A stretch of DNA of 64,000 nucleotides. Origin: Gemmatimonadota bacterium. Its GTDB lineage: Bacteria; Gemmatimonadota; Gemmatimonadetes; JACCXV01; JAHWKZ01. Made by a program: the position numbers and the translations under genes. Below, one piece after another: positions 8,904-16,779 of the stretch. The stretch is from positions 3,891-67,890 of the forward strand of contig JAICQP010000001.1 of NCBI GenBank assembly GCA_025937815.1. Reading direction: 5' to 3'. The notes beneath the pieces are model-generated. The model did not search any database, was not told the origin of the DNA, and was given only the letters and a program-made list of their open reading frames with translations. Each line of letters begins with the position of its first letter. Within the stretch, counting starts at the first letter, position 1.

Positions 8904-10772
8904 ATGACGACGCCCGATTGCATCCGGAACTTGGCGATTATCGCCCACATCGACCACGGGAAGACCACGCTCATCGACGCGGTCTTCAAGGCGGCCCACG
9001 TCTTCCGGGACGGGGCCGAGGTGACCGAGCGCGTCATGGACTCGGGCGATCTCGAGCGCGAGCGGGGGATCACGATCCGCTCCAAGCACTGCACGGTGGA
9101 GTGGGAAGGGCACCGGATCAACATCGTGGATACTCCCGGCCACGCGGACTTCAGCGGGGAGGTCGAGCGGGTGCTCTCCATGGTCGACGGCGCGCTCCTC
9201 CTGGTGGACGCCAACGAGGGCCCGATGCCACAGACCCGCTACGTCCTCATGCGGGCGCTGAAGCGCGGCCTCAGGCCGATCGTGCTCCTCAACAAGGTCG
9301 ACCGGCCGAACGCCGATCCGGAGAAGGCCCTTCACGAGACCTTCGACCTGTTCCTCGAGCTCGGGGCGAGCGACGAGCAGGCGGATTTTCCGGTCCTCTA
9401 CGGTTCCGGTCTGGCGGGATGGTTCGTTCGCGACCTGGACAAGGACGCGCGCGACGGGATGGCGCCTCTGTTCGAGACGATCGTCCAGAGTGTCCCGGCC
9501 CCGGACGCCGTGATCGATGCCCCGTTCCGGATGCAGGTCTCGACCCTCGCCTGGAGCGATTACCTGGGCCGGATCGGCTGCGGTCGCGTGCTCCAGGGCG
9601 TGCACCGGCGGGGGGAGCAACTCATCCGCCGTACGTCACGCTGGATCGACCGGGAGGCGGGGTCATGGGAGATCACCGGGCGCGATCCCGCGACCTCCAG
9701 CCGTCTCTGGGTGACGCGCGGGATCGAGCGCGAAGAGGTCGACGAGGTCACGGCGGGCGACATCGTCTGGATTGCGGGCTTCGAGGAGCTGGGGGTCGGC
9801 GATACGATCGGGGCGCCAGATGCGCCGGACGAGGCCCTCCCGCCGCTCGAGATCGAGGAGCCGACGGTCTCGATGCTGTTCCTGGTGAACAGCGGTCCGT
9901 TCGCGGGTAGCGACGGGAAGGCTGTGACCCTGCGCCAGATCCGCGATCGGCTTGCGCGCGAGGAGCGCGTGAACGTGGCGCTCCGGGTCGAGGACATCGG
10001 GCGCTCTGACGGCGTCAAGGTGTCCGGACGCGGGGAGCTCCATCTCGCGATCCTGATCGAGGAGATGCGGCGCGAGGGGATGGAGCTCTGCGTCTCCCGA
10101 CCCGAGGTCATCCTTCACGAAGGGAAGGATGGCTCGGTCGAAGAGCCTCTGGAACAGCTCGTGATCCACGTGCCCGAGGAGCAGCAGGGCGCGGTATTCG
10201 AGAAGCTCGCCCGGCGGAAGGCGGAGCTCACCGCCGTGCACAACGCGGGCACGGGTCTCGTGCGCCTCGAGTACGTGATCCCGACCCGCGGACTGATCGG
10301 CTACCGGAGCGAGTTCCTGACCGACACTCGGGGACTCGGGATCATGACCTCGCGGGTCGTGGGATACGGTCCTTGGCGCGGCGAGGTCGAGCACCGCGAG
10401 CGGGGCGCCATGGTGAGCCTCGACATGGGTCCCGCGACCTCGTATGCGCTCGAGAACCTGCAGCAGCGGGGCACGCTGTTCGTGGGCCCGATGGAGCGCG
10501 TGTACGCGGGCATGATCGTGGGGGAGAGCGCTCGGCCCGGCGATCTGCCGTGCAATCCGACCAAGCGCAAGCAGGTGACGAATCACCGCTCTGCCACGCG
10601 CGAGGTCGACACCGGCCTCAAGGCCGCCCGGCGTCAGACCCTCGACGCCGCGCTCGAATGGATCGCCGAAGACGAGCTGGTCGAGGTGACGCCCGAGTCC
10701 GTGCGTGTACGGAAAGCCGTTCTCGACGCGACCGAGCGCAAGCGTATCGAGAGACGCCTGGCCGCGCTCTAA
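8904..10772 (+). CDS. typA: translational GTPase TypA/BipA
   Basis: N-terminus [30 protein letters not shown] GTPase motifs and TypA-like length (622 aa). Confidence 0.9.
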
Positions 10773-10788: not shown

Positions 10789-10866
10789 GCCCCGGTAGCT
10801 CAGTTGGACTAGAGCAGCGGCCTTCTAAGCCGCGGGTCGGGGGTTCGAATCCTCCCCGGGGCGCCA
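10789..10866 (+). tRNA. tRNA-Arg (anticodon TCT)
   Basis: Acceptor GCCCCGG/CCGGGGC, D-arm GCTC-AGTTGGACTA-GAGC, anticodon loop CTTCTAA, T-loop TTCGAAT, CCA encoded. Confidence 0.8.
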
Positions 10867-10899
10867 TGCATGGCCGGGCGGTAGATTCGCATCTCACGT

Positions 10900-10977
10900 G
10901 GTGGGCGTAGCTCAGCTGGTTAGAGCACCAGGTTGTGGCCCTGGGGGTCGGGGGTTCGAGTCCCCTCGCTCACCCCA
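10900..10977 (+). tRNA. tRNA-His (anticodon GTG)
   Basis: Extra 5' G (G-1), anticodon loop TTGTGGC, T-loop TTCGAGT, CCA encoded. Confidence 0.8.
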
Positions 10978-11086
10978 CCTTCGCCAAGGCGGCCGGCGAG
11001 CCAGCCGGCCGCTTCGCGCGTTTGTGCCGGAGAACGCGCGCCGATATATTCCGCACGCCGCATCTCGCGGTCCCACCCCGGCTCGT

Positions 11087-11162
<76 letters not shown>

Positions 11163-11370
11163 GCTTCCAGGAACAGACGATTGCCACGGTCCGAAATGGA
11201 TTTGTGGTAAATGCCTGATCGGCTGTTGGCTGAATCAAGGTGGCAATACGGGGGCCAAAGAGTGGTAATGCGGTTCCAAAGAAATGCCCGCGGAGCTATT
11301 GAGGATGGATCCCCCGCCAGGGTAGAGTCTGACATCTGTAAAGAAGAGGACTTTCATGGAAGGAGGGTCT

Positions 11371-11526
11371 GTGGAGAAGAAGCCTTACGCACCTCCGAGG
11401 GTCTTTGATCTCGGCACGGTCAGAGATCTCACTCATTCCACTGCCGAGGAAGACAAGTGCAGCGGGAGCGGTGACATCCGCACCGTGCAACAGATCAGCC
11501 CGAACTACAGCTTCGACTGCCCGTAA
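11371..11526 (+). CDS. small Cys-containing peptide, paralog 1 (candidate RiPP precursor / secreted peptide)
   Basis: 51 codons from GTG 11371 (GGAAGGAGGG RBS); an in-frame ATG at 11356 would add 5 aa. Product (M)EKKPYAPPRVFDLGTVRDLTHSTAEEDKCSGSGDIRTVQQISPNYSFDCP; three near-identical paralogs nearby; terminator hairpin downstream. Confidence 0.65.
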   Translation: MEKKPYAPPRVFDLGTVRDLTHSTAEEDKCSGSGDIRTVQQISPNYSFDCP

Positions 11527-11560
11527 GGCAAGACGAACGGCGCTTTGGAAATGATGACAT

Positions 11561-11594
11561 GAGCCGGGGCGAAAGTCCCGGCTCAGTTATTTCC
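11561..11594 (+). terminator. rho-independent terminator after peptide paralog 1
   Basis: GAGCCGGGGC-GAAAGT-CCCGGCTC hairpin followed by AGTTATTTCC. Confidence 0.6.
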
Positions 11595-11741
11595 TGTCCT
11601 CACTGACGGCGCCCACCTGAGCGGCAATTTTTTAAACGTTCGAGTTAGCCACCTTACAAAGACATACGATTTTCATACCCGTAATCGCCCCCGATATATG
11701 GATGATTTCCTAGGGTATGGTACACTCAAGGAACTGAGGTA

Positions 11742-11781
11742 CCACGGCGTGGAAGCAGGCTTCCCACGGCGTGGAAGCAGG
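11742..11781 (+). promoter_or_regulatory. tandem 18-bp direct repeat, each with 11-bp palindrome CCACGGCGTGG (candidate operator), downstream of a TGgTACACT extended -10-like element
   Basis: CCACGGCGTGGAAGCAGG at 11742-11759 and 11764-11781 (22-bp register), ~40 nt upstream of paralog 2 start; -10-like ATGGTACACTC at ~11716-11726. Confidence 0.45.
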
Positions 11782-11822
11782 AGGACCGGTAAGCAAACCA
11801 TCAACTCGACGGAAGGCTGGCA

Positions 11823-11978
11823 ATGGAGAAGAAGCAGTACGTGACCCCCAAGGTTCTTGAACTTGGTACCGTGAAACAGCTCACCGAAACCACTCCGGAA
11901 GCCGACAAGTGTAGCGGCAGCGGCGACGTGCGAACCGTCCAGGAGCTGAGCCCCAACTACAGCACCGACTGCCCGTAA
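11823..11978 (+). CDS. small Cys-containing peptide, paralog 2
   Basis: ATG start with GGAAGG RBS; product MEKKQYVTPKVLELGTVKQLTETTPEADKCSGSGDVRTVQELSPNYSTDCP (51 aa). Confidence 0.65.
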   Translation: MEKKQYVTPKVLELGTVKQLTETTPEADKCSGSGDVRTVQELSPNYSTDCP

Positions 11979-12009
11979 TCCGGGCCGAACTCCCTATGTT
12001 GGATGGATG

Positions 12010-12043
12010 GAGCCGGAACGAAAGTTCCGGCTCTTCCATTTCC
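12010..12043 (+). terminator. rho-independent terminator after paralog 2
   Basis: GAGCCGGAAC-GAAA-GTTCCGGCTC hairpin then TTCCATTTCC. Confidence 0.6.
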
Positions 12044-12290
12044 AGGCCCCGTCCTTCTCCATGACGATCATGACCCACATGCTGCGGAAACTTCTACAAC
12101 CTTCAGGAAGCCATGGCATCTGTCTTGACGTAGGCGGAAGGCGGTCGCGAACGGCACCTCGCGGCTCTCGCGCGGCCGAATTCTCCACGAACTTCCGATG
12201 GGTGTTGGCCGCCTTTAGGTCTCTAGTGCATCATGATTCCGGTTCTTCGACGGCTGCGGCCATCCCCGTGGCAATCCGGCGATTGGTGAC

Positions 12291-12328
12291 TTGAAAGCGA
12301 AACGAGCCGGGAGATTTCTCCCGGCTCG
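12291..12328 (-). terminator. rho-independent terminator after paralog 3 (minus strand)
   Basis: CGAGCCGGG-AGAAATCT-CCCGGCTCG hairpin followed on minus strand by TTTCGCTTTCAA. Confidence 0.55.
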
Positions 12329-12359
12329 TTCGGATACCGTTCCTGTGTGCAGTGTCGGG

Positions 12360-12515
12360 CTACGGGCAGTCGGTGCTGTAGTTGGGGCTCAGCTCCTGAA
12401 CCGTCCGCACGTCTCCGCTGCCGCTGCACTTGTCGTTCTCCGGCGTCGTCTCGGTGAGCTCCTTGACGGAGCCCAGCTCCACGACCTTCGGGGTTTCGTA
12501 CGGCTTCCTGCTCAT
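12360..12515 (-). CDS. small Cys-containing peptide, paralog 3
   Basis: C-terminal 51 codons of six-frame ORF 12360..12668; ATG with GGAGGAG RBS; product MSRKPYETPKVVELGSVKELTETTPENDKCSGSGDVRTVQELSPNYSTDCP. Confidence 0.65.
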   Translation of the reverse strand: MSRKPYETPKVVELGSVKELTETTPENDKCSGSGDVRTVQELSPNYSTDCP

Positions 12516-12677
12516 CCGCTCCTCCTCACCTCGGGACCTCGCGTTACTTGCCGTGGAACCACTGTGCCAGAGTGTACCATGAGCAGCGGACGCTCTCAAT
12601 GTCTCCGGGGCCGTTTCGGGTATGGAAATCGTCTGATTCGATGAGCGAATGCGAAACGCCGAGGCCAAAGTGAGGCG

Positions 12678-12713
12678 CCCGAAACGACGGAGCCGGGGCG
12701 TTGGCCCCGGCTC
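12678..12713 (-). terminator. rho-independent terminator after paralog 4 (minus strand)
   Basis: GAGCCGGGGC-CAACG-CCCCGGCTC hairpin followed on minus strand by CGTCGTTTCGGG. Confidence 0.5.
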
Positions 12714-12743
12714 AGGTCGTCATCCGGACTGCGTGCTCTTCGC

Positions 12744-12899
12744 CTACGGGCAGTCCGTGCTATAGTTCGGGCTTATCTGTTGCACGGTGCGGACGTCACC
12801 GCTGCCGCTGCACTTGTCTTCCTCGGCCGTCGTCCGGGTGAGCTCTCTCACCTTGCCGAGGTCGAATACCCTGGGAGCTACGTAAGGCTTCCTGCTCAT
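12744..12899 (-). CDS. small Cys-containing peptide, paralog 4
   Basis: Terminal 51 codons of long shadow ORF 12744..14093; ATG with GGGAGGGG RBS; product MSRKPYVAPRVFDLGKVRELTRTTAEEDKCSGSGDVRTVQQISPNYSTDCP. Confidence 0.65.
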   Translation of the reverse strand: MSRKPYVAPRVFDLGKVRELTRTTAEEDKCSGSGDVRTVQQISPNYSTDCP

Positions 12900-13103
12900 C
12901 ACCACCCCTCCCTTCTGGGATCTGGAGTATCGTCGGACCCCAGTGTACGGGACGCCGGTAGGGAACATCAATGGCATGGAGGTATGGAAAACTATTGAAG
13001 CTGGCGCGTTCCTTGTACGGCATGAGACAAATGACCGAAGATTGCCCGGCGATCGACCGCATGGAGTCGCAGTTGCACGCCAGCCCGCGTAGATTCGGCT
13101 CCG

Positions 13104-14087
13104 ATGAGCGAGGTGGGGGAGGCACGGTCGGGGCAGGTGGCGGGAGCGGAGGTCGCGACCCGGGCGGGATTCGTGGCGCTCGTGGGGCGGCCCAACGCGG
13201 GCAAGTCCACGCTCCTGAACGCCCTGGTTGGCGAGCATCTGGCAGCCGTCAGCCACAAGGCCCAGACGACACGGCACCGGATCCCCGGGTTCCTCACCGA
13301 CGACTCCACCCAGTACGTCTTCGTCGACACTCCCGGCTTTCTCGATCCCGCCTACCCGCTGCAGCAGAGCATGCTCGACACCGCCCTTTCCGCGCTGGAG
13401 GGGGTCGATGTCGTGTGCTGGCTGGTCGACCACGACGAGCCGTCCGAGCGTGAGGAGGAGCTGCTGCGCGACCTGGCGGGGCGCCGACTGAACGGCGGTC
13501 GCGCGTCCCGAAGCACGGCGGGAGATACTCTGCCGCTGATCCTGCTCCTGACGAAGAGCGACCAGGTGCCGGTCGCGAAGCTCGATGCTCGCGAGCGGAC
13601 GTGGGGAAAGCTGGATGTCTGGGCGGGCAGTTTCCGGCTGAGCGCCGTGACGAGAGAGGGGCTCCCGGAGCTCCTCGCCGGTCTGCGCGAGCGGCTCCCC
13701 GAGCAGCCGTTTTTCTACGACCCCGAGGACCTCACGGACCTGAACCTGCGCTTCATCGCGGGCGAGATGGTGCGGGAGGCTTGCTACGAAGAGCTGGGCG
13801 CCGAGCTTCCGTACAGCGTCCATGTCGAGGTAACGGACTGGCGTGAGGCCGCTGGCGAAGGGGACAAGACCCTGATCCGCGCAACCGTGTACGTGGAGCG
13901 CGAGAGCCAGAAGGGAATCGTGATCGGGGCGGGCGGAAAGAAGCTCTCGGATATCGGTCGCCGGTCCCGGGCCTCGATCGAGGCGCTCATCGGGGGGCCG
14001 GTGTTCCTCGAGCTTCGAGTCAAGGTCCGCCCGAAATGGTCGCGGCGCGACCGCGACCTCCAGCACTTTGGTTACAAACGCAAGTAA
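13104..14087 (+). CDS. era: GTPase Era
   Basis: GFVALVGRPNAGKSTLLNAL, DTPG, TKSD GTPase motifs plus C-terminal KH-domain region; start may be one of two nearby in-frame GTGs. Confidence 0.85.
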   Translation: MSEVGEARSGQVAGAEVATRAGFVALVGRPNAGKSTLLNALVGEHLAAVSHKAQTTRHRIPGFLTDDSTQYVFVDTPGFLDPAYPLQQSMLDTALSALEGVDVVCWLVDHDEPSEREEELLRDLAGRRLNGGRASRSTAGDTLPLILLLTKSDQVPVAKLDARERTWGKLDVWAGSFRLSAVTREGLPELLAGLRERLPEQPFFYDPEDLTDLNLRFIAGEMVREACYEELGAELPYSVHVEVTDWREAAGEGDKTLIRATVYVERESQKGIVIGAGGKKLSDIGRRSRASIEALIGGPVFLELRVKVRPKWSRRDRDLQHFGYKRK

Positions 14088-14111
14088 TGTCAACTACTAC
14101 AAGGAGTTAGC

Positions 14112-14279
14112 ATGGCTTTGGACAAGGAGCTTCTGGAGATACTGGCGTGCCCGAAGTGCAAGGGCGACCTGACCTACAAGGAGAAGGAGCAGGTGCTGGA
14201 ATGCCCGGCGTGTCGCCTCCGGTACCCCATCAAGGACGACATTCCGATCATGCTGATCGATGAGGCGGAATCGTTTTGA
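14112..14279 (+). CDS. Trm112-family small zinc-ribbon-like protein (UPF0434)
   Basis: 55-aa product MALDKELLEILACPKCKGDL...LECPACRLRYPIKDDIPIMLIDEAESF; AAGGAG RBS at 14101. Confidence 0.7.
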   Translation: MALDKELLEILACPKCKGDLTYKEKEQVLECPACRLRYPIKDDIPIMLIDEAESF

Positions 14280-16426
14280 GCCCGTCTCTCGAGGAGCGCA
14301 TTCTCGAATACCTGGCCCGGTCTCAGCGACCGCTCAAGCTCAAGGAGATCGCACGGGGTGTCGACGTCGGGGAGGAGGGATACCCCGATCTGAAGCAGGC
14401 CCTCGCCCGCCTGACCGAAGAGGGGAGGGTCTACCGGACCAAGCCCCAGCGCTATGCGCTGCCGGAGCAGATCAACCTGGTGGTGGGAACTCTCGACGCC
14501 ACGCGCAGAGGCGCGGGCTTCGTCGTACCCGAGAAGAAGAAGGTGGGGGATGCGGACACGTTCATTCCGCCCCACAAGCTGGGAGGCGCGGTCCATGGCG
14601 ACCGCGTGGTGGCACGGGTCGAAGGCCGGCGAGGCCGCGACAACCCGGAGGGAAGGATCATCCAGATACTGGAGCGCGCCCACACCCAGATCGTCGGCAC
14701 ACTCCAGCGCGGGAAGCGGTTCGGCTTCGTGGTCCCCGACAATACGCGCCTCGGCTTCGACGTCTACGTCCCCGAGGAGGACCTGAAGCAGGCGGAAGAA
14801 GGACAGAAGGTCGTGGTGTCGATCGAGGACTGGGGGGACGGCACCAAGAGCCCCGAAGGTCGCGTGGTCGAGGTTCTCGGAGACCCCGACGCGCCGGGTG
14901 TCGACATCCTGTCCATCATCCGGAGCCACGAGCTAGACCCCGAGTTCCCCCCGGACGTCGAGAAGAGCGCGCGCGCGATAGAAGCCGATTTCGAAGCCGA
15001 GGCCCGCCGACGGCTGGATCTTCGCGAGAAGCTCGTCTTCACGATCGACCCGCACGACGCCAAGGACTTCGACGACGCCCTCTCGATCGAGCGGAAGGGC
15101 GACGATCTGTTCGAGATCGGCATCCACATCGCCGACGTCAGTCATTACGTGAAGGAAGGTAGCCCGATCGACGAGGAGGCGTTCGAGCGCGGCACCTCGG
15201 TCTACCTCGTCGACCGGGTGATCCCCATGCTCCCGGAGCACCTGTCCAACGGCCTCTGCTCGCTGAAGCCCGACGAGGATCGGCTCACGTACTCGGTCAT
15301 CGCGACCATGGACAGCCAGGGCAACGTCCGGGAGAGCAGCTTCCACGAGAGCGTGATCAGGAGCCGCTACCGACTGACCTACCAGGAGGCCCAGGACCTG
15401 ATCGACAGCAAGCCTTCCAGAGACGAGCTCAAGCCCTTGCTGTCCCCCCTGCAGACGCTGCGTCGCCTGGCCAAGGTCCTGCGCCAGAAGCGCGCCGCCC
15501 GCGGCAGCCTCGACTTCGACCTGCCCGAGGCGCGGGTTGAGTTGGACGAGGAAGGGTTTCCGATCGACATCCAGGAGTCCGTGCGGCTGGACAGCATGCG
15601 CCTGATCGAGGAGTTCATGCTACTGGCCAACGAGACCGTGGCGCGGCACGCCACGCGCCTGAAGGTGCCCTTCATCTATCGGGTCCACGACCGCCCGGCC
15701 CCCGAGAAAATCGATCAGATCCGCGGTTTCGTGGCCGCGCTTGGCTACCAGCTTCCCAGGCCGAAGCAGGGGAAGATCGACCCGCGGGTGTTCGCCGAGA
15801 TCATCGATCAGGCGCGGGGCAAGCGCGAGGAGGAGTTGATCAACACCGTGATCCTCCGGTCCATGAAGCAGGCCCGGTATCAAGTGGACAACCTGGGGCA
15901 CTTCGGACTGGCCGCCAGCGACTACACGCATTTCACATCCCCGATCCGGCGGTATCCGGACCTCGAGGTCCATCGCCTTCTTAAGCGCATCCAGGCGGGC
16001 GAGCGCTGGAAGGACGATCGAGACGGGCAAACCGCGAGGCTGGAGCGGATCGCGGACCACTCCTCCGTGGAAGAGCGCAACGCGGTCGACGCCGAGCGAG
16101 ACTCGATCGACCTGAAGAAGGTGGAGTTCATGGAGCGCCACCTCGGCGACGAGTTCGACGGGACGATCAGCGGCGTCACATCCTTCGGCATGTTCGTGCG
16201 GCTGGACCGCTACTTCGTGGAGGGGCTGATCCACATGCATGACATGTCCGACGATTATTACGAGTTCCACGAAGACAAGTACGCGCTCCTCGGGCGCAAC
16301 ACGGGGCGGCGGTTCCGTCTGGCGGACCCGGTTCGCGTACGGGTCGAGTCGGTCGACAAGGAGCGGCGCCAGATCGACTTCGTCCTGATCGAGAAAGAGG
16401 CGAAGCGCGAGAAAGCGCGCGCGTAG
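14276..16426 (+). CDS. rnr: ribonuclease R
   Basis: N-terminal HTH/cold-shock-like region, RNB catalytic core pattern (TIDPHDAKDFDDALS...), C-terminal S1 domain; TTG start overlapping upstream stop. Confidence 0.85.
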   Translation: MSPSLEERILEYLARSQRPLKLKEIARGVDVGEEGYPDLKQALARLTEEGRVYRTKPQRYALPEQINLVVGTLDATRRGAGFVVPEKKKVGDADTFIPPHKLGGAVHGDRVVARVEGRRGRDNPEGRIIQILERAHTQIVGTLQRGKRFGFVVPDNTRLGFDVYVPEEDLKQAEEGQKVVVSIEDWGDGTKSPEGRVVEVLGDPDAPGVDILSIIRSHELDPEFPPDVEKSARAIEADFEAEARRRLDLREKLVFTIDPHDAKDFDDALSIERKGDDLFEIGIHIADVSHYVKEGSPIDEEAFERGTSVYLVDRVIPMLPEHLSNGLCSLKPDEDRLTYSVIATMDSQGNVRESSFHESVIRSRYRLTYQEAQDLIDSKPSRDELKPLLSPLQTLRRLAKVLRQKRAARGSLDFDLPEARVELDEEGFPIDIQESVRLDSMRLIEEFMLLANETVARHATRLKVPFIYRVHDRPAPEKIDQIRGFVAALGYQLPRPKQGKIDPRVFAEIIDQARGKREEELINTVILRSMKQARYQVDNLGHFGLAASDYTHFTSPIRRYPDLEVHRLLKRIQAGERWKDDRDGQTARLERIADHSSVEERNAVDAERDSIDLKKVEFMERHLGDEFDGTISGVTSFGMFVRLDRYFVEGLIHMHDMSDDYYEFHEDKYALLGRNTGRRFRLADPVRVRVESVDKERRQIDFVLIEKEAKREKARA

Positions 16427-16515
16427 CTGGCCTCAGTGTATGGGGCCGGCTTGACTTCCCACGCGTGCCATGGTATGAGAAGGCGAACCGTACGGACCTC
16501 ACAAGGAGGGGGATC

Positions 16516-16716
16516 ATGGCGAACGGTCAAGGTGGTGGAGGTGGGAACGGGGGTGTGTACGCGATCCTGATCATCATCGTGATTCTCATCCTCGCGGCGG
16601 TGCTCTACATGAGCGGCGCATTCGGTGGAGGGGATGACGCGACGGACATCAACGCCGACGTGAACATCGAGAACCCGGTGGGCGACGGGGGTGGCGGAGG
16701 CGGCGGAAACGAGTAG
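16516..16716 (+). CDS. small Gly-rich single-pass membrane protein (hypothetical)
   Basis: AGGAGGGGG RBS then ATG; MANGQGGGGGNGGVYAILIIIVILILAAVLYMSGAFGGGDD...GDGGGGGGGNE: poly-Gly termini flanking one TM helix. Confidence 0.45.
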   Translation: MANGQGGGGGNGGVYAILIIIVILILAAVLYMSGAFGGGDDATDINADVNIENPVGDGGGGGGGNE

Positions 16717-16779
16717 CCGCGCCGGCAGGTCGAACGAAACGAGCGGCGGGGGGATGAAGATCCTCCCGCCGCTTCTGCT

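Follow-up and report, generated by a model that had tools for sequence, protein, structure and literature searches.

In the 64,000-nucleotide (nt) stretch of a Gemmatimonadota bacterium analyzed here (contig JAICQP010000001.1; the whole stretch is referred to as the window), four paralogous genes, g1 to g4, each encode a 51-amino acid (aa) peptide with a lasso-type leader. We consider it probable (about 0.75) that g1–g4 are extra A (precursor) genes of a lasso-type RiPP system (RiPP, a peptide that is made on the ribosome and then modified post-translationally), and that their products are matured in trans by a cluster, of the type found in contig L018, located elsewhere in the genome. This explanation is the most likely because relatives of the peptides sit in a lasso cluster and share promoter architecture and a hairpin with g1–g4. 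The link to the enzymes was seen in related genomes, and we infer that it extends to the source genome. An earlier note on this DNA had listed precursors whose maturases lie elsewhere as one alternative; that alternative is now favored, since relatives adjoin lasso genes and one of them has a core identical to that of g3.

Four paralogous genes and their leader

The genes are located between a tRNA-Arg/His/Lys cluster (10789-11162) and era (13104-14087). The four 51-codon open reading frames (ORFs) had the exact coordinates given earlier:

11371..11526, + strand: g1, putative precursor peptide gene; 51 aa, GTG start, core STAEEDKCSGSGDIRTVQQISPNYSFDCP; NF033521, 19.5 bits
11823..11978, + strand: g2, putative precursor peptide gene; 51 aa, core TTPEADKCSGSGDVRTVQELSPNYSTDCP; NF033521, 13.6 bits, below cut-off
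12360..12515, - strand: g3, putative precursor peptide gene; 51 aa, core TTPENDKCSGSGDVRTVQELSPNYSTDCP; NF033521, 26.8 bits
12744..12899, - strand: g4, putative precursor peptide gene; 51 aa, core TTAEEDKCSGSGDVRTVQQISPNYSTDCP; NF033521, 20.6 bits

An in-frame ATG at 11356 would extend the g1 product to 56 aa, but because it overlaps the ribosome-binding site (RBS), the GTG at 11371 is the likelier start. In a gap-free alignment of 51 columns, the products of g2–g4 shared 65–80% identity with that of g1. Thirty-two of the columns were invariant in all four products, including Y6, P9, V11, G15, T21, both Cys residues and the blocks DKCSGSGD (28–35), SPNYS (43–47) and DCP (49–51). Codon analysis of the four paralogs gave pairwise ratios of non-synonymous to synonymous substitution (dN/dS) of 0.11–0.26 with dS of 0.5–1.6. 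The proportion of non-synonymous differences (pN) was lower in residues 23–51 (0.089) than in residues 2–22 (0.242), and the synonymous proportion (pS) was equal. By these measures g1–g4 are real coding sequence and not chance ORFs, and the dN/dS, dS and pN pattern indicates that the duplications are old and have been maintained at the protein level by purifying selection. The strong purifying selection on the core counts in favor of precursors served in trans. At the nucleotide level, g1 and g4 (82% identity) and g2 and g3 (81%) were the closest pairs, with the remaining pairs at 72–78%, and the array therefore looks like an inverted duplication of a two-gene unit. Since there are two nearly invariant core types (g2/g3, and g1/g4 with the type-specific VQQISPNYS), the four copies raise dosage, not diversity. 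A relative of g2, P0001, is 96% identical to it and occupies the same position in L004 and L005.

The NCBIfam model NF033521 (lasso_leader_L3, “lasso RiPP family leader peptide-containing protein”) matched residues 6–21/22. Its cut-off of 19 bits was passed by g3, g4 and g1, and g2 fell just short; the best E-value was 3e-6. These matches bear out the lasso-type leader proposed in the earlier note for three of the four copies, which the NCBI annotation pipeline would already name lasso-leader proteins. The motif Y-x-x-P-x-L/V-x3-G-x5-T, with Thr as the penultimate leader residue, was present with its residues invariant in all four copies. Its positions were also kept in relatives across the family, a point on which the earlier proposal had been made to depend, with the replacement of Tyr by Phe in P0028, a phage-borne member. 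The cyanobacterial-type precursor model NF033528 (lasso_cyano) matched g2 and g3 at only 13.7 and 15.4 bits (cut-off, 33 bits), and these weak matches spanned residues 3–22 without aligning the core.

A Pfam search of the four peptides returned no match, and neither a signal peptide nor a hydrophobic segment was found in them. AlphaFold2, run with a 22-sequence family alignment, predicted no compact or confident fold (pLDDT 62, pTM 0.19), for which reason no fold search was carried out. The absence of a confident fold fits the view that g1–g4 encode precursors, because it is expected for a precursor peptide.

Relatives in lasso clusters and the origin of the array

A word-indexed search of 5.8 billion proteins returned only 30 clusters, 45–92% identical to the query, and matches among the species representatives of GTDB were limited to three, all metagenome-assembled genomes (MAGs) of Gemmatimonadota. 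Two kinds of locus were observed: era-linked arrays, as in the window, and single copies linked to a biosynthetic cluster (L001, L002, L003, L012, L018, L019 and L022). In the latter, the peptide gene directly follows a gene of ~370 codons that encodes the synthetase domain of Asn synthase only (PF00733, E 4e-13 to 4e-11; hereafter the short Asn-synthase). Downstream of the precursor are an ATP-binding cassette (ABC) exporter and then a ~280-aa HPr-kinase-like (HPrK-like) protein. Upstream are a LuxR/GerE-type regulator and, on the opposite strand, a full-length cyclase of 637–641 aa, which in L001 scored 621 bits against NF033535 (“lasso peptide isopeptide bond-forming cyclase”; cut-off, 525 bits). 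In L018, which comes from an 805-kb contig (ctg4075482, ERZ28493407), and in L019, B2 (PF13471, transglutaminase-like) and B1 (PqqD, PF05402) were located ~6 kb upstream in the same block, and the peptide family is thus genetically linked to B1, B2 and C in these two loci. L022 encodes the C-terminal 101 residues of the short Asn-synthase (E 2e-51 with a profile of this enzyme) and, directly after it, a peptide that matches g3 at 100% identity over the core. Short Asn-synthase and precursor are arranged alike in L012, where the core differs by one substitution. Inspection of the neighbors of relatives, a check proposed in the earlier note, therefore placed the same peptide family inside a lasso cluster in other Gemmatimonadota contigs.

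This setting bears on two further proposals of the earlier note. A secreted or structural disulfide small-protein family outside RiPP maturation, with a coincidental leader motif, would account for the two invariant Cys residues and the strongly conserved C-terminal half. We regard it as very improbable, because the peptides lack a signal peptide or hydrophobic segment, the leader model is significant (E down to 3e-6), AlphaFold2 gave a pTM of only 0.19, and family members form part of a RiPP cluster, with a cyclase homolog on one side and an exporter on the other in seven or more independent contigs. A wholly new RiPP-like class was not upheld either, as the enzymes amount to the usual set for lasso peptides, with extras. 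Three other classes were considered and dropped: a lanthipeptide or labionin (suggested by Ser/Thr and Cys), as no LanB/C/M/KC gene was present in any cluster; a graspetide (suggested by the Lys/Asp/Thr-rich core), as no cluster contained an ATP-grasp gene; and a PqqA- or MftA-like cofactor precursor (suggested by the invariant core), as no radical-SAM gene was found and an exporter was present.

Among the extras, the short Asn-synthase looks like a truncated cyclase, judging from its homologs. Its family comprises at least 1638 proteins at E < 1e-10, of which more distant members lie beside a lasso B2, a PqqD protein and lasso-leader peptides. In L016, it stands where a cyclase normally would (A, enzyme, B2), adjoins a lasso B2 (NF033537, 54.8 bits; cut-off, 33 bits) and accompanies a precursor with a canonical S1–D8 core; in L013 and L014, it follows a PqqD gene. 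The full-length cyclase and the short Asn-synthase are found side by side in L001, L003, L018, L019 and L021. PDB sequence searches with the short enzyme, as a single sequence and as a profile, returned nothing useful, and those with the full-length cyclase returned AsnB-type enzymes only; no characterized member of the short Asn-synthase family was found. The ~280-aa protein, which has a P-loop, was conserved in every cluster long enough to include it (L001, L002, L003, L013, L014, L016, L018, L019 and L021). Its match to TIGR04352 (HprK_rel_A; cut-off, 200 bits) was weak, with E-values of 6e-4 in L003 and 3e-7 for the L016 homolog. The interval between B2/B1 and the cyclase (L018, 893-7263; L019, 756-7080) also holds a 45-aa hydrophobic ORF (MYLGPETLMPIASALAAVGGVLLLFWRRVVG...), PF01663 phosphodiesterase-family genes (three in L018, two in L019) and a ~670-aa sulfatase/LtaS-family gene, all on the B2–B1 strand. 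Together with the kinase-like gene, the PF01663 and sulfatase/LtaS genes suggest phosphate-based tailoring or attachment to the envelope.

More distant loci varied in composition. L021 carries two tandem precursors (11360-11801; ..DKCAGSND..GDCP) with spacers of different length, as well as two distinct HPr-kinase-like proteins and a PqqD domain in fusion with a phosphoribosyltransferase-like protein (13919-16755); DUF6065 genes lie near this cluster, as they do in L013. In L020 (9798-11173; 613-kb contig, ERZ28493407), a short Asn-synthase and a 48-aa lasso-leader peptide (MEKKIYETPQVLSLGSVRELTELVVRPPTECSALESDFGTEDGICEIP) lie beside clpB, with no B1, B2, exporter or kinase within 10 kb; the pair may be a minimal two-gene system.

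Sequences flanking the coding regions connect the array with the cluster. An AGGAGG-like RBS precedes each of g1–g4, as does a promoter-like pair (TTGAnn or TGGATG, 16–18 nt, TA(C/G)A(C/G)T), and a hairpin follows each gene:

11299..11328, + strand: g1 promoter-like pair; TTGAGG (11299-11304), 18 nt, TAGAGT (11323-11328)
11670-11679, + strand: g2 upstream box TTTTCATACC; one mismatch to TTTCCATACC
11699..11726, + strand: g2 promoter-like pair; TGGATG (11699-11704), 16 nt, TACACT (11721-11726)
12619-12628, - strand: g3 upstream box TTTCCATACC; exact box search
12571..12599, - strand: g3 promoter-like pair; TTGAGA (12599-12594), 17 nt, TG-TACACT (12576-12571); promoter-scan match
12981-12990, - strand: g4 upstream box TTTCCATACC; exact box search
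12942..12971, - strand: g4 promoter-like pair; TTGATG (12971-12966), 18 nt, TACACT (12947-12942)
11561..11584, + strand: hairpin after g1, GAGCCGGGGCGAAAGTCCCGGCTC; -25.9 kcal/mol, z -5.6
12010..12033, + strand: hairpin after g2; -25.9 kcal/mol
12304..12327, - strand: hairpin after g3; -27.8 kcal/mol
12690..12713, - strand: hairpin after g4; -27.7 kcal/mol

Within the window, the exact box TTTCCATACC was present only upstream of g3 and g4, and g1 had no box. The pattern GAGCCGG-N10-CCGGCTC occurred four times in 64 kb, once on the 3′ side of each gene, against an expectation of 0.05. The outer seven base pairs of these hairpins are fixed, and the inner stem varies between copies with compensation. 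Because the T-tracts behind the hairpins are weak, with only the g1 hairpin passing a simple terminator scan, we infer no more than a putative terminator role. The earlier description of an RBS, a -10-like element and a GAGCCGG...CCGGCTC hairpin for each gene is supported at the level of sequence, and the flanking signals support the view that g1–g4 may be independent transcription units.

The g1 hairpin is identical to the hairpin behind the cluster-linked precursors in L001 and L022, and alignment of upstream regions revealed one architecture common to the cluster-linked and most of the era-linked copies (..TTCAA..TTT(T/C)CATAC(C).. ~18 nt ..cATTGAn.. 17–18 nt ..GTA(C/G)ACT). The shared architecture and hairpin indicate that the era locus received copies of whole promoter–ORF–hairpin units from the cluster, and the era-locus units have kept signals that would permit co-regulation with the cluster. 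The 5′ untranslated region (UTR) of g2, at ~95 nt, is the only long leader of its kind. It contains an 18-nt direct repeat, CCACGGCGTGGAAGCAGG, in two copies (11742-11759 and 11764-11781), each with a small palindrome (CCACG-G-CGTGG) and an RBS-like GGAAGCAGG. The repeat was conserved at the orthologous gene in L004 and L006, and a regulatory role is possible.

Four copies in the arrangement of the window were present in L004 and L005, and two era-linked copies in L009, L011 and L023–L032. All era-linked arrays lay between era and tRNAs/typA, and no biosynthetic gene was found within 10 kb of them. The era-linked copies could instead be peptides that are not enzyme substrates, such as unprocessed regulators, decoys for the leader-binding protein or immunity factors. 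Their distance from enzyme genes, the conservation of the housekeeping neighborhood (typA, tRNAs, era) in several lineages and the purifying selection over the whole length, core included, would all suit such a role. We nevertheless consider it improbable, because the copies still carry Thr(-2) and both Cys residues as well as the leader and acceptor motifs, the g3 core is identical to a cluster-linked copy, their promoter box and hairpin are those of the cluster, and no confident fold was predicted.

Contigs with era-linked copies were short and often broke at the array; many of the metagenome contigs in L023–L032 stop inside the second peptide gene or shortly behind it. Such repeats evidently break short-read assemblies, so that the copy number and linkage of the family are probably under-reported in MAGs. 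A further family member (MKKPFETPVLREYGSVAEFTETTPEADKCSGSGDVRTLSQQISPNYSTDCP) was observed on the phage-like contig L007 (Logan SRR22868755, 58 kb) at 10001-10156, and the same gene was present in L008. It has a strong RBS without a promoter of its own and lies amid early or replication genes, its neighbors encoding ParB-like, replication initiator/primosomal, Gam-like and RusA proteins and two methyltransferases, with the terminase large subunit 10 kb further on. Its leader has diverged (Phe for Tyr), and its core is almost of the host type; it would be a phage-encoded lasso-type precursor that relies on host enzymes. A scan of IMG/VR for the family found none, and this Logan contig (L007/L008) carries the only phage-borne copy.

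In the window itself (G+C content, 69%), the other genes are housekeeping genes, encoding cytochrome c, a class-Ib tRNA synthetase, DUF2090, BipA, Era, RNase R, purine enzymes, LexA, a subtilase, ribosomal protein S1 and methylmalonyl-CoA mutase. Searching all 64 kb with tblastn using the cluster proteins gave no match. Profiles were also made from the B1, B2, cyclase, short Asn-synthase, kinase-like, exporter and regulator proteins of Gemmatimonadota; run with hmmsearch --max, they matched only an MlaF-type ABC ATPase (1117-1974). Hence, the statement in the earlier note that the window holds no maturase was confirmed, and no B1, B2 or C gene accompanies the precursors within the window.

The core and its proposed ring

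By analogy with characterized lasso systems, on which all chemical steps, the processing in trans and the co-regulation are modeled, the following course can be proposed. Each of g1–g4 would be transcribed from its own sigma-70-like promoter. The TTTCCATACC box upstream of most copies, which is shared with the cluster-linked precursor, suggests co-regulation, perhaps by the LuxR-type regulator of the cluster, and the transcript would end at the conserved hairpin. Residues 1–22 would serve as the leader, with Y6, P9, V11 and G15 binding the PqqD-like B1 and Thr21 acting as the recognition residue for the B2 cysteine protease. The core (residues 23–51) would then be cyclized by an ATP-dependent Asn-synthetase-like enzyme. 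The acceptor would most likely be Asp35, because it is the only invariantly acidic position inside K-C-x-G-S-x-D/E. A Cys30–Cys50 disulfide would tie the ring region to the C-terminal tail, the HPr-kinase-like enzyme may add phosphate, and the ABC exporter would release the product.

Read from Thr21-x22, the core is T/S1-T2-P/A3-E4-x5-D6-K7-C8-S9...D13. In the window, acidic residues occupy positions 4–6 and 13, and none is present at 7–9. The earlier note had placed the first acidic residues at 4–6 instead of 7–9, and the core is indeed non-canonical: every solved lasso peptide carries its acceptor Asp/Glu at position 7, 8 or 9 (PMC12214591), and none of g1–g4 combines Gly/Ala/Ser/Cys at position 1 with Asp/Glu at 7, 8 or 9. 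Shifting the junction to T23, T24, residue 25, residue 27, D28, K29, C30 or S43 yielded no canonical ring, as no shifted start gave a conserved small residue 1 together with Thr(-2) and a conserved acceptor at 7–9.

An exhaustive profile search of 1.84 billion representatives returned 48 proteins at E < 1e-3. Acceptor positions were read directly from individual core sequences. The peptide-length matches consist of a lasso leader ending in L-T-x, a spacer of 1–8 residues whose sequence and length differ between members, the fixed unit (D/N)-K-C-x-G-(S/T)-x-(D/E) and, after 12–20 residues, a second Cys near the C-terminus. Because the spacer before the fixed unit varies in length, counting from the Thr(-2) junction puts the acidic residue of the unit at position 8, 9, 10, 11, 12, 13 or 15; its distance from Lys is always seven residues. 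The two Cys residues (C30 and C50) were conserved in nearly all members of the superfamily. Three matches, P0154 (199 aa), P0161 (72 aa) and P0169 (111 aa), contain two to four tandem lasso-leader-like units (..Y-E-P-P-x-L/V-x2-L-G-S/T-x5-T..) with short acidic or Ser-rich stretches between them, and may be multi-core or multi-leader precursors.

Several of these observations weigh against the view that g1–g4 encode lasso precursors served in trans. There is no enzyme gene in 64 kb, and processing in trans is extrapolated from related genomes. No single genome was found with both cluster-linked and era-linked copies, and the three GTDB species representatives with the family hold the cluster-linked copy only. 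In most RiPP families the leader is more conserved than the core; here the core was the more conserved part (76% against 65% mean pairwise identity), which suggests a fixed target rather than diversifying antibiosis. The core also breaks the 7–9 rule, with Asp35 at position 13 from Thr(-2) and the corresponding residue at 8–15 across the superfamily. Residue 1 would be variable (Thr, Ser, Asp or Ala), compared with Gly, Cys, Ser or Ala, plus Asn in metanodin, among characterized lasso peptides (PMC12670498).

As judged from the alignments, two readings of the ring remain. In the first, the α-amine is joined to Asp35 in a ring of unprecedented and variable size, which the Cys30–Cys50 disulfide would lock. 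In the second, the pathway is the same but the product would not be a canonical threaded lasso: the short Asn-synthase would join Lys29, either through its side-chain amine or through its α-amine after adjacent cleavage, to Asp35, forming a constant seven-residue macrolactam K-C-S-G-S-G-D. The variable TTPEA(D) would be left outside the ring or trimmed, and the full-length cyclase would make a second link or perform another step. The constant Lys-to-acidic distance next to a spacer that varies from 1 to 8 residues after Thr(-2), the two Asn-synthetase homologs kept side by side in five clusters and the invariance of Lys29 and Asp28 in the close family all speak for this lactam. Four divergent members (P0176, P0192, P0188 and L020) have Asn, Pro or Glu in place of Lys, which speaks against an essential side-chain nucleophile. 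In addition, no member has lost Thr(-2), which suggests canonical B2 cleavage two residues further on, and the short enzyme of L016 stands in the cyclase position beside an S1–D8 core that has no Lys. We therefore consider the Lys29–Asp35 lactam unlikely, though less so than unprocessed peptides.

Both rings can be brought together in the broader proposal of a lasso-derived RiPP subclass that breaks the 7–9-residue ring rule. Its products would contain either a ring of 13 residues here (8–15 across the superfamily), held by the Cys30–Cys50 disulfide, or the constant seven-residue Lys29–Asp35 lactam made by the N-terminally truncated Asn-synthetase homolog. We advance this subclass tentatively, at somewhat less than even odds. 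If it is real, the nearly invariant core, the dispersed copies with a shared box, the LuxR-type regulator and the phage copy would together point to a conserved signaling or physiological role and not to an antibiotic arms race.

Significance and comparison with known systems

A lasso-type RiPP system is in itself a known kind of system, since NF033521 already labels three of the four copies and lasso clusters have been counted in Gemmatimonadota MAGs (PMC11316326). Our literature searches found no description of the peptide family or its non-canonical core, nor of paired full-length and truncated cyclases, dispersed multi-copy precursors or a phage-borne copy. A full set of lasso enzymes with cores unable to obey the 7–9 rule constitutes a concrete and testable exception, and the truncated cyclase homolog is a candidate for new ring chemistry. 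For genome mining, precursor genes may sit far from the cluster in multiple copies, where cluster-centered tools such as antiSMASH or RODEO would miss them, and estimates of precursor dosage and diversity for uncultured phyla, Gemmatimonadota among them, are probably too low. That the core is unusually conserved and that one copy lies on a phage-like contig hints at a role that goes beyond antibiosis.

Prochlorosins, in which many procA genes are served by one ProcM and hypervariable cores generate diversity, resemble the present family in having a conserved leader and several precursor genes away from the enzyme genes. The cores in the window are nearly invariant by contrast, which points to dosage or a fixed target. 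The NCBIfam cyanobacterial-type system is similar in that the cyclase of the related cluster passes NF033535 (621 against 525 bits) and NF033528 gives leader-only matches, but differs in that the precursors fail NF033528 (13.7–15.4 against 33 bits). Metanodin, with Asn at ring position 1, likewise has a residue 1 outside Gly/Cys/Ser/Ala and a junction set by Thr(-2) (PMC12670498); it keeps the expected ring size, whereas the peptides of the window do not.

Class III lasso peptides have one ring–tail disulfide (PMC9266682). As in BI-32169 and 9401-LP1, the window peptides contain exactly two Cys residues, one within the stretch leading up to the putative acceptor Asp and one in penultimate position, apparently placed as a ring–tail disulfide would need. 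The class III ring comprises 9 residues from Gly1; by the Thr(-2) rule that of the window peptides would comprise 13, with a putative disulfide and putative threading.

The closest parallels in gene content are the paeninodin (padeACB1B2DK) and pseudomycoidin (psm) clusters, which share the split B1 (PqqD) and B2, the Asn-synthetase-like cyclase, the ABC exporter and, putatively, the HPr-kinase-related protein (PMC9266682), as well as the YxxPxLx3Gx5T leader. In both systems, the kinase phosphorylates a conserved C-terminal Ser of the precursor (PMC9266682). In contrast, g1–g4 end in D-C-P without a C-terminal Ser, and the cluster-linked relatives end in DCP, DCPGD, DCPSG, DCPDD or DCPVG; the kinase match here is weak (E 6e-4 to 3e-7) and far below NCBIfam cut-offs. 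Paeninodin-type cores have Asp at 7–9 and those of the window do not. To the paeninodin type, the Gemmatimonadota cluster adds the truncated Asn-synthase homolog, three PF01663 proteins, a sulfatase-family protein and a LuxR-type regulator.

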